Shown here: in pieces, positions 3,070 through 3,255 of the stretch | Layout: every line of letters begins with the position of its first letter | Numbering within the stretch: the stretch's first letter is position 1 | From: Klebsiella phage vB_Kpn_K54_rec1 | Sequence record: PQ569687.1 | Direction: 5' to 3' (one strand) | Length of the DNA: 64,000 nucleotides | The notes under the pieces: model-generated | Told to the model about the DNA's origin: nothing | The model's database searches: none | The model's input: the letters and a program-made list of their open reading frames with translations, nothing else | Made by a program: the position numbers and the translations under genes

Positions 3070-3255
3070 AAACATTTTATGTACGGGCTGATGTCCTGAA
3101 TATCGCCATATTCCCAACGCAAGTACCAAGTGTTTGCGAGACACTCTGCCTGTACCATTCTGTAATAATCAGTTCTCGCGATAACCAATCTACGGAATCA
3201 CACCCCAGTAGGTGCAGCAAGGTTTTAAGATTCTCAAACCCGTACATAAAATGTT
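3070..3255. repeat. 185 nt non-coding element bounded by a perfect 16-19 bp inverted repeat (CATTTTATGTACGGGC ... GCCCGTACATAAAATG)
   Basis: Direct reading shows 3070-3088 is the reverse complement of 3237-3255. The interior has no ORF or tRNA. Confidence 0.6.

Follow-up and report, generated by a model that had tools for sequence, protein, structure and literature searches.

Bacteriophage T4 makes small RNAs from its tRNA region. Two of them, RNA C (species 1) and RNA D (species 2), are still without an assigned role (PMC3014915, PMC9697503); their genes lie beside that of the T4 tRNA-Arg. GOLLD and ROOL are structured RNAs borne by phages or prophages. They are about 500-800 nt long, often lie near tRNA genes and are represented in Rfam; their role is unclear. 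In bacterial Y RNAs of the YrlA type, some of which are phage-encoded, the 5' and 3' ends form a long stem that is accompanied by a structured module. In rRNA operons and in the early RNA of phage T7, a helix of about two turns flanks a functional RNA and joins the neighbouring ends for a single cut by RNase III. Theta ribozymes, i.e., minimal HDV-like ribozymes, are located within 5 nt of the 3' ends of phage tRNAs, often suppressor tRNAs, in phages of gut Bacteroidota and Bacillota (PMC10879173). A part in the maturation of tRNA 3' ends has been proposed for them; in E. coli RNases E and III are involved in the processing of tRNA 3' trailers (PMC10879173).

The element described here is encoded in a Klebsiella phage of the genus Mydovirus (Vequintavirinae). 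The window, i.e., the whole stretch of 64,000 nucleotides that was analysed, carries a tRNA array on its minus strand, with 13 tRNAs called by ARAGORN and ORFs with Pfam domains. All tRNAs and ORFs near the element are on this strand. Positions 2700-3500 show 100% identity over the 801 bases compared with Klebsiella phage vB_Kpl_K54lambda1.1.1 (Mydovirus, Vequintavirinae). Along the direction of transcription a promoter-like site is followed by tRNA-Thr (3445-3371), a tRNA-like RNA (3367-3256), the element (3256-3070) and tRNA-Leu(UAA) (3068-2991), which is identified by ARAGORN and by Rfam. A sequence-only reading had placed the element between tRNA genes. This is correct, tRNA-Leu (2991-3068) and tRNA-Thr (3371-3445) both being on the minus strand; yet the immediate upstream neighbour is not tRNA-Thr but the uncalled tRNA-like RNA. 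The promoter-like site (TTGAAA-17-TAAAAT, 3540..3568, minus strand, found by a consensus scan only) is a candidate start of the transcript which would contain the element. In several deposited genomes the stretch of the element is annotated as hypothetical proteins or is unannotated.

The ends of the element form an inverted repeat which is far beyond chance. Its arms at 3070-3087 and 3239-3256 are 18 nt long, perfect, and have the sequence AAACATTTTATGTACGGG. With up to 3 mismatches such an 18-mer is expected 0.09 times in the 64-kb window, and in none of 100 shuffles were two matches obtained. No further copy exists within the 64 kb when 3 mismatches are permitted. Thus the repeat noticed earlier is real; its former limits (3070-3088 and 3237-3255) were off by 1-2 nt, and the element, previously given 185 nt (3070-3255), measures 187 nt (3070-3256). 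On the plus strand C3088 stands opposite A3238. On the minus strand the same two positions form a G·U pair, so that the RNA helix extends to about 22 pairs. Indeed, the minus-strand fold (-60.2 kcal/mol, z = -3.16) has a helix of 20 contiguous and about 22 total pairs.

This terminal helix, P1, abuts a tRNA or tRNA-like end on either side. Its first base, A3256, is at the same time A76 of the CCA of the upstream tRNA-like RNA. Its last base, U3070, lies 2 nt ahead of the RNase P site of tRNA-Leu with a single spacer base, 3069, in between. The element therefore exactly occupies the inter-tRNA spacer, and an RNase P cut at the 5' end of tRNA-Leu would make its 3' end. In relatives the element begins 0-3 nt from the upstream CCA. 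On the other side, most leave 0-2 nt before the next tRNA; KP13-16 has a gap of 5 nt there, and Hena1 one of about 30 nt. In the gap of Hena1 a terminator-like hairpin, CCCCGCUUGACGGGG, with a U-run directly follows the element on the tRNA strand, which is consistent with transcription in that direction.

The upstream tRNA-like RNA (3256..3367, minus strand, about 109-112 nt) has an encoded CCA. Its acceptor, D and anticodon stems measure 7, 6 and 5 bp, respectively, the D loop has 4 nt, and there are a T arm and a long variable arm which covaries. The anticodon loop has 6 nt of the form C-N-N-C-C-A, CCGCCA in the window. This RNA is conserved across Mydo-, Seuna- and Henunavirus. The orthologs in Erwinia phages, whose loop has 7 nt (CAUCAAA), bear the annotation suppressor tRNA (tca). 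Matches to tRNA-Sec are sub-threshold only. By its appearance, the RNA at 3256-3367 seems to be the equivalent of T4 RNA C at this locus.

Like T4 rnaC and rnaD, the element itself is a non-tRNA RNA whose gene lies among phage tRNA genes and on their strand. The difference lies in the structure: T4 rnaC has the shape of a tRNA, including a canonical T arm, and no 20-bp terminal helix. A search of the T4 region with R1, the covariance model of the element, returned no match, and the folds of rnaC and rnaD also differ. Consequently, the likeness to the T4 small RNAs suggested by the sequence-only reading holds for the type of location and does not extend to homology with rnaC or rnaD.

The structure of the element was derived from an alignment of 12 sequences with 11 distinct homologs. 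R1 matches the window copy (3070..3256, minus strand, 187 nt, family 'A/A-prime') over its full length with 189 bits. A long closing helix leads into a three-way junction of P1, the P2 domain and P8, with a multi-helix domain inside. Overall, 55 pairs in 8 helices are paired to 95.3%; shifting the 3' partners by 1-3 columns lowers this to 37-45%. Changes on both sides are observed in 25 pairs versus 2-8 after sliding the partners; as the family comprises 11 distinct sequences from about 7 lineages, such strong covariation counts stem from few independent events. None of 500 shuffles matched the observed pairing or covariation score.

The A/U-rich P1 is formed by the 5' strand AAACAUUUUAUGUACGGGUUUGA (3234..3256, minus strand) and the 3' strand UCAGCCCGUACAUAAAAUGUUU (3070..3091, minus strand). 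Of its 20 modelled pairs, 9 have changed on both sides, and the helix is paired to 93.6% in the alignment. P1 is followed by the single strand J1/2, GAAUCUUAAAA (3223..3233, minus strand), delimited by the alignments, with the heptamer CUUAAAA (3223-3229) invariant in 12 of 12 sequences. The inner domain is closed by P2, in which, judged by covariation, CCUUGC (3217..3222, minus strand) pairs with GUUGG (3114..3118, minus strand). Three of the five P2 pairs have changed on both sides and 87% are paired; this helix was placed by inspection and is weak in the window, with two U·U positions.

Within the inner domain the P3 hairpin GCACC-UACUGG-GGUGU (3200..3215, minus strand) has 6 pairs, paired to 100%, one of which covaries (C-G/U-A). 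The bipartite hairpin domain P4-P5 (3157..3198, minus strand) contributes 5 pairs in P4 and 8 in P5, of which 3 each are covarying; many pairs of P5 are G·U. P7 (3131..3143, minus strand) is a short hairpin of 3 pairs, 2 of them covarying, with the conserved loop (C/U)UCGCAA. In P8, GAAUAU-GGCG-AUAUUC (3098..3113, minus strand), 4 of 6 pairs covary around an invariant GGCG loop; the stem occurs as GAAUAU/AUAUUC, GACAAC/GUUGUC and GGUGAC/GUCACC. According to the alignments, J8/1 (3092..3097, minus strand) is situated within the conserved motif CAGGAC(A/U)U (3091-3098). CUUAAAA, the loops (C/U)UCGCAA and GGCG, and CAGGAC(A/U)U are all single-stranded and invariant or nearly so.

The strand is disclosed by the G·U pairs. 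Among the cells of the modelled pairs 99 are G·U versus 6 A·C, which indicates an RNA encoded on the minus strand, i.e., that of the tRNAs. Read as plus strand, about 80% of the cells would be paired, compared with 95% for the minus strand. A cruciform in the DNA and a transcript of the plus strand were rejected on these grounds, since for either of them the 99 G·U cells would be mismatches. As far as comparative evidence goes, selection demonstrably acts on a non-coding RNA structure that is encoded by the minus strand. Both the covariation and the excess of G·U over A·C thus lend good support to the long-stem structured RNA which the sequence-only reading had considered for this phage tRNA region.

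Does the element encode a protein instead? The claim that the interior is devoid of a tRNA agrees with the ARAGORN and Rfam searches. The claim that it is devoid of an ORF does not: an ORF of 56 codons (3247..3077, minus strand) starts with an ATG inside one repeat arm and stops with a TAA inside the other. It is intact in the window and in PVP-SE1, as a small protein gene of 56 aa would demand. Yet it is not conserved. It is broken, by frameshifts and stop codons, in FENT2, KP13-16, FBKp34, L025, KPP-1, Ro1, SNUABM_01 and Hena1 at nucleotide identities of 76-89%, and the longest sense ORFs of these eight homologs have 18-43 codons. Further, indels are not multiples of three, and the ATG is buried inside the 20-bp helix with no Shine-Dalgarno sequence seen ahead. 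We consider that there is next to no chance that the conserved entity is a protein gene.

Homologs were searched by blastn, by three pattern scans and with the covariance model R1. In Mydovirus members are found in the K54lambda group, in a group of KPP-1, VIK251, VLCpiM5b, AV124 and P8734, and in Ro1; in Seunavirus in the PVP-SE1 group and FENT2; in Henunavirus in pEp_SNUABM_01 and Hena1. The PVP-SE1 copy is 96% identical to the window element. Two further phages, KP13-16 and FBKp34, belong to the Stephanstirmvirinae. Three degenerate-pattern scans of IMG/VR yielded nothing beyond the known PVP-SE1, Ro1, pEp_SNUABM_01 and Hena1. In metagenomes at least 3 true members exist among the 80 of 98 pattern matches that were screened with R1. 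Among the 80 of 83 pattern matches from bacterial genomes screened with the model there was no true member, and E. coli genomes gave no match to the element. The copy number is one per phage record, with the exception of one 172-kb record which has the element in two places.

In the Stephanstirmvirinae the setting differs. Here, the core is located between a small non-tRNA RNA, which follows tRNA-His, and tRNA-Gly, and it is enclosed by a different outer helix. The core of the window and that of a Stephanstirmvirinae phage are 88.9% identical, while shared protein-coding regions are 75-86% identical. Measured by nucleotide identity, the conservation of the core equals or exceeds that of the shared protein genes. 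KP13-16 is 75-86% identical to positions 7963-16828 of the window over a NAD-salvage block (NAPRTase, prs and others) which adjoins the tRNA region. From this common block it follows that both subfamilies share a larger module of which the RNA is a part.

The Rfam covariance search which the earlier reading had recommended as a check has been run, and no family matched. Using Rfam 15, a search of 8 kb returned nothing overlapping 3070-3256 at E<=10. For the isolated element a 14-bit chance match to mir-255 was the sole result, and for the A-prime version 10-15-bit chance matches only. Six related loci were likewise without a family. Going by these searches the element belongs to an RNA family that is absent from Rfam. 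It has 187 nt and matches neither GOLLD nor ROOL, which are far longer. With Y RNAs it has the long end stem in common; yet its core is devoid of a T-loop or tRNA-like module, and there is no match to an Rfam Y RNA. A literature search, with the supplements of the viral structured-RNA catalogue PMC10690425 outside its scope, disclosed neither a description of the element RNA nor a transcriptome for these phages.

Several more specific identities were tried and rejected. A retron msr-msd would require repeats, which are present, but the tRNA follows immediately downstream and there is no RT domain in the eight neighbouring ORFs scanned. A CsrA/RsmY-like sponge produced only a 17-bit chance match, and the GGA motifs are outside of loops. 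The segment GUACAGGCAG resembles the CRISPR I-F repeat; mimicry was discarded as other family members do not retain this segment and as it has no counterpart to the 5' half of the repeat hairpin. Integron attC-like core sites at the ends of the arms do not comply with the GTTRRRY consensus by inspection. A T-box-like pairing (UGGN/NCCA) with tRNA-Leu agrees with type A, but A-prime does not conform to it.

Exchangeable cargo becomes apparent when the same locus is compared between close relatives. Between the tRNA-like RNA and tRNA-Leu, in relatives with near-identical flanks, the slot is occupied by unrelated inserts of 163-192 nt: type B (about 166 nt) in Mydo, DP and KP12, type C (about 192 nt) in GAP31, 4MG, SalP219 and Csp-D17, and type D (about 163 nt) in NDO71. 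In PVP-SE1 and FENT2 A and C are present one after the other in direct tandem. Types B, C and D are each closed by a terminal helix of 18-26 bp which is flush with the tRNA ends. In type C compensatory changes are evident, and the 5' arm in PVP-SE1 and FENT2 maintains pairing by way of three A-to-G changes that give G·U. R1 matches none of the types B, C and D, and on this account a single superfamily of A with B, C and D was rejected. In Rfam 15 types B, C and D are without a match. The outer 9-12 bp of P1 are alike among the cargos at the Vequintavirinae locus, and the outer helix of the A cargo in Stephanstirmvirinae is different from it. Thus the outer helix follows the locus, and the inner part follows the cargo. 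By these comparisons, the element is shown to be one of several alternative cargo RNAs in one stem-closed slot.

The presence, absence or replacement of the block in close relatives, its occurrence in a second genomic context and 18-nt perfect terminal repeats around 187 bp are also what one would expect from a miniature inverted-repeat mobile DNA element (MITE) or its footprint between the tRNA genes. Against this stand the single copy in the window and the one place per phage record (two in the 172-kb record), the flanks ...GACGCA and GGAGCA..., which are not duplicated, and the absence from the bacterial genome loci screened and from E. coli. Moreover, the arms pair through G·U, in the proportion of 99 to 6, that works only in minus-strand RNA, the interior covaries as RNA, and in every case the element is encoded on the strand of the tRNAs and directly adjoins their ends. 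A MITE is, in our opinion, exceedingly improbable. The inserted-element footprint raised by the sequence-only reading must hence be divided: a transposon type is not supported, given one copy per genome, no target duplication and selection at the level of RNA; a cassette-like replacement among relatives is what is found.

We consider it probable that the element is a cargo RNA which is co-transcribed with the tRNAs, excised by way of a terminal helix of RNase III size together with RNase P, and active in trans. According to this proposal tRNA-Thr, the tRNA-like RNA, the element and tRNA-Leu would be present in one transcript, in which P1 with about 22 bp would enclose the core of P2-P8 and the single strands CUUAAAA, UCGCAA, GGCG and CAGGAC. 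RNase III requires double-stranded RNA of roughly two helical turns. The corresponding length of about 20 bp continuous dsRNA is reached by the element, and all family members as well as types B-D have 18-26 bp. What could weigh against a cut in the A/U-rich P1 are the sequence antideterminants to which E. coli RNase III responds. An intact P1 would lock up both the CCA of the tRNA-like RNA and the tRNA-Leu leader, and therefore some cleavage or unwinding would be required. From the length of P1 and from this sequestration we infer that the host dsRNA endonuclease RNase III may cut within P1. After such a cut, the tRNA-like RNA trailer and the tRNA-Leu leader would be free for finishing by exonucleases and RNase P, and the core would be released as a discrete RNA of about 165-187 nt. 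The paired ends would shield the released core from exonucleases and permit its accumulation, and through its conserved loops the core could then act in trans on some protein or other RNA.

The part of this scheme which concerns processing could also be all there is. The helix would then present one RNase III site which splits the adjacent tRNAs, in cis, and the interior would be functionless. The earlier reading had likewise listed a processing hairpin, and its geometry fits because the helix reaches from the CCA on the upstream side to a point 2 nt short of tRNA-Leu; the cleavage as such is a prediction from the model. In favour of a cis-acting spacer, a long terminal helix is common to all occupants of the slot irrespective of their interior, the helix adjoins both tRNA ends, and the outer 9-12 bp of P1 track the locus and not the cargo. 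The interior speaks against it. It is conserved as much as or more than neighbouring protein genes, has six inner helices with compensatory changes and invariant loops, and is retained in a different tRNA context in another phage subfamily. A conserved and covarying interior is unexpected for a passive loop, and we regard a spacer with cis function only as unlikely. The comparison with the RNase III stalks of rRNA operons and T7 early RNA points to the same difference: the helix of about two turns is common to both, but that of the element flanks a conserved core of 140 nt between two tRNAs.

Alternatively, the element may be a ribozyme which, by cutting itself, produces the mature 3' end of the tRNA-like or suppressor-like RNA upstream, as a functional analogue of the theta ribozymes. 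Both abut the 3' end of a phage tRNA or tRNA-like RNA, at 0-3 nt for the element and within 5 nt for theta ribozymes (PMC10879173). Further, the Erwinia phage annotations list the upstream RNA as a suppressor tRNA, and the multi-helix core with its invariant single strands is conserved. Yet fold and host range differ from those of theta ribozymes, and no Rfam ribozyme family was matched by the isolated element even at E<=10. The first 23 nt and the last 22 nt make up one continuous helix; the nested double pseudoknot of HDV is incompatible with this as the 5' end of the element pairs with its 3' end and not internally. The first base is A where G is usual. Taken together, a ribozyme appears very improbable.

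Returning to the cargo RNA acting in trans, one may ask what the exchange of cargos could serve. The slot as a general exchange site, where an outer helix of RNase III type belongs to the locus and encloses swappable cargos (A/A-prime, B, C, D; one alone or two in tandem) that are used against the host or that bind tRNA-Leu(UAA), is a rather speculative extension to which we assign a low likelihood. In the former case, the cargos may be, e.g., decoys or inhibitors of tRNA-targeting defence nucleases. In the latter case, CUUAAAA could engage in a kissing interaction with any UUAA anticodon loop. The heptamer is identical to the anticodon loop of the PVP-SE1 tRNA-Leu(UAA); we treat this match as a lead, not as evidence. 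If an exchange site were real, tRNA arrays would carry a swappable arsenal of anti-defence RNAs, and a first function would be at hand for the 'extra' small RNAs of phage tRNA clusters, known since T4.

Irrespective of function the family is tractable: comparative support is strong, the boundaries are clear, the hosts can be cultured, and natural swaps exist between near-isogenic Klebsiella phages. Since the long helix directly adjoins two tRNA ends, its predicted processing can be checked with RNase III and RNase P. Recognition as an RNA gene corrects deposited annotations and provides a candidate family for Rfam.

The tRNA genes around the element are themselves variable. The tRNA-Leu(UAA) of the window has 78 nt and is without the long variable arm usual in tRNA-Leu; at the same place KPP-1 and Ro1 have a type II tRNA-Leu of 86-89 nt (compared at L001 595-680). 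Mydo, DP, KP12 and KPP-1 possess a 75-nt tRNA, annotated as tRNA-Ser, between tRNA-Thr and the tRNA-like RNA (L002, Mydo, 947-1021), which the window lacks at about 3368-3370. The tRNA-Thr sequence of the window is also unlike that of Mydo, DP, KP12 and KPP-1. At 2906-2984 (minus strand) Rfam reports a tRNA with 34.9 bits, compared to a gathering score of 29; it has an odd D-arm region and no ARAGORN call. Near this position relatives carry tRNA-Arg.

In PVP-SE1 an ORF of 164 aa with an HNH-like motif (507-1001 of L005, minus strand) begins within a 5' fragment of tRNA-Leu of about 30 nt, immediately after cassette C; a complete type II tRNA-Leu(UAA) is located downstream of it. Going by this arrangement, the ORF looks like a homing-endonuclease insertion into or beside a tRNA gene. 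In the tRNA region of the window the ORF 1918-2265 (minus strand) has a PD-(D/E)XK endonuclease domain (E = 1.7e-21) and the ORF 5696-6109 (minus strand) a weak HNH match. Judged from these domains, both are probably homing-type nucleases interspersed with the tRNAs.

Other spacers of the array have features of this kind, too. The ends of the spacers 1385-1504 and 1581-1662 (minus strand) pair in the fold, with shorter, G/C-rich closing stems of 13-16 terminal MFE pairs; these inter-tRNA spacers may be further small RNAs according to the folding model. A second long-stem module of about 336 nt (3449-3784, minus strand, fold z = -3.96) ends 3 nt before tRNA-Thr. It holds the promoter-like site 3568-3540 and an ORF of 49 codons. 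Its arms are AAAUGCUGUUUUUGGUUA and UAAUCGGAAACAGCAUUU, and the stem is conserved in six relatives, i.e., KPP-1, Mydo, P8734, GAP31, 4MG and SalP219.
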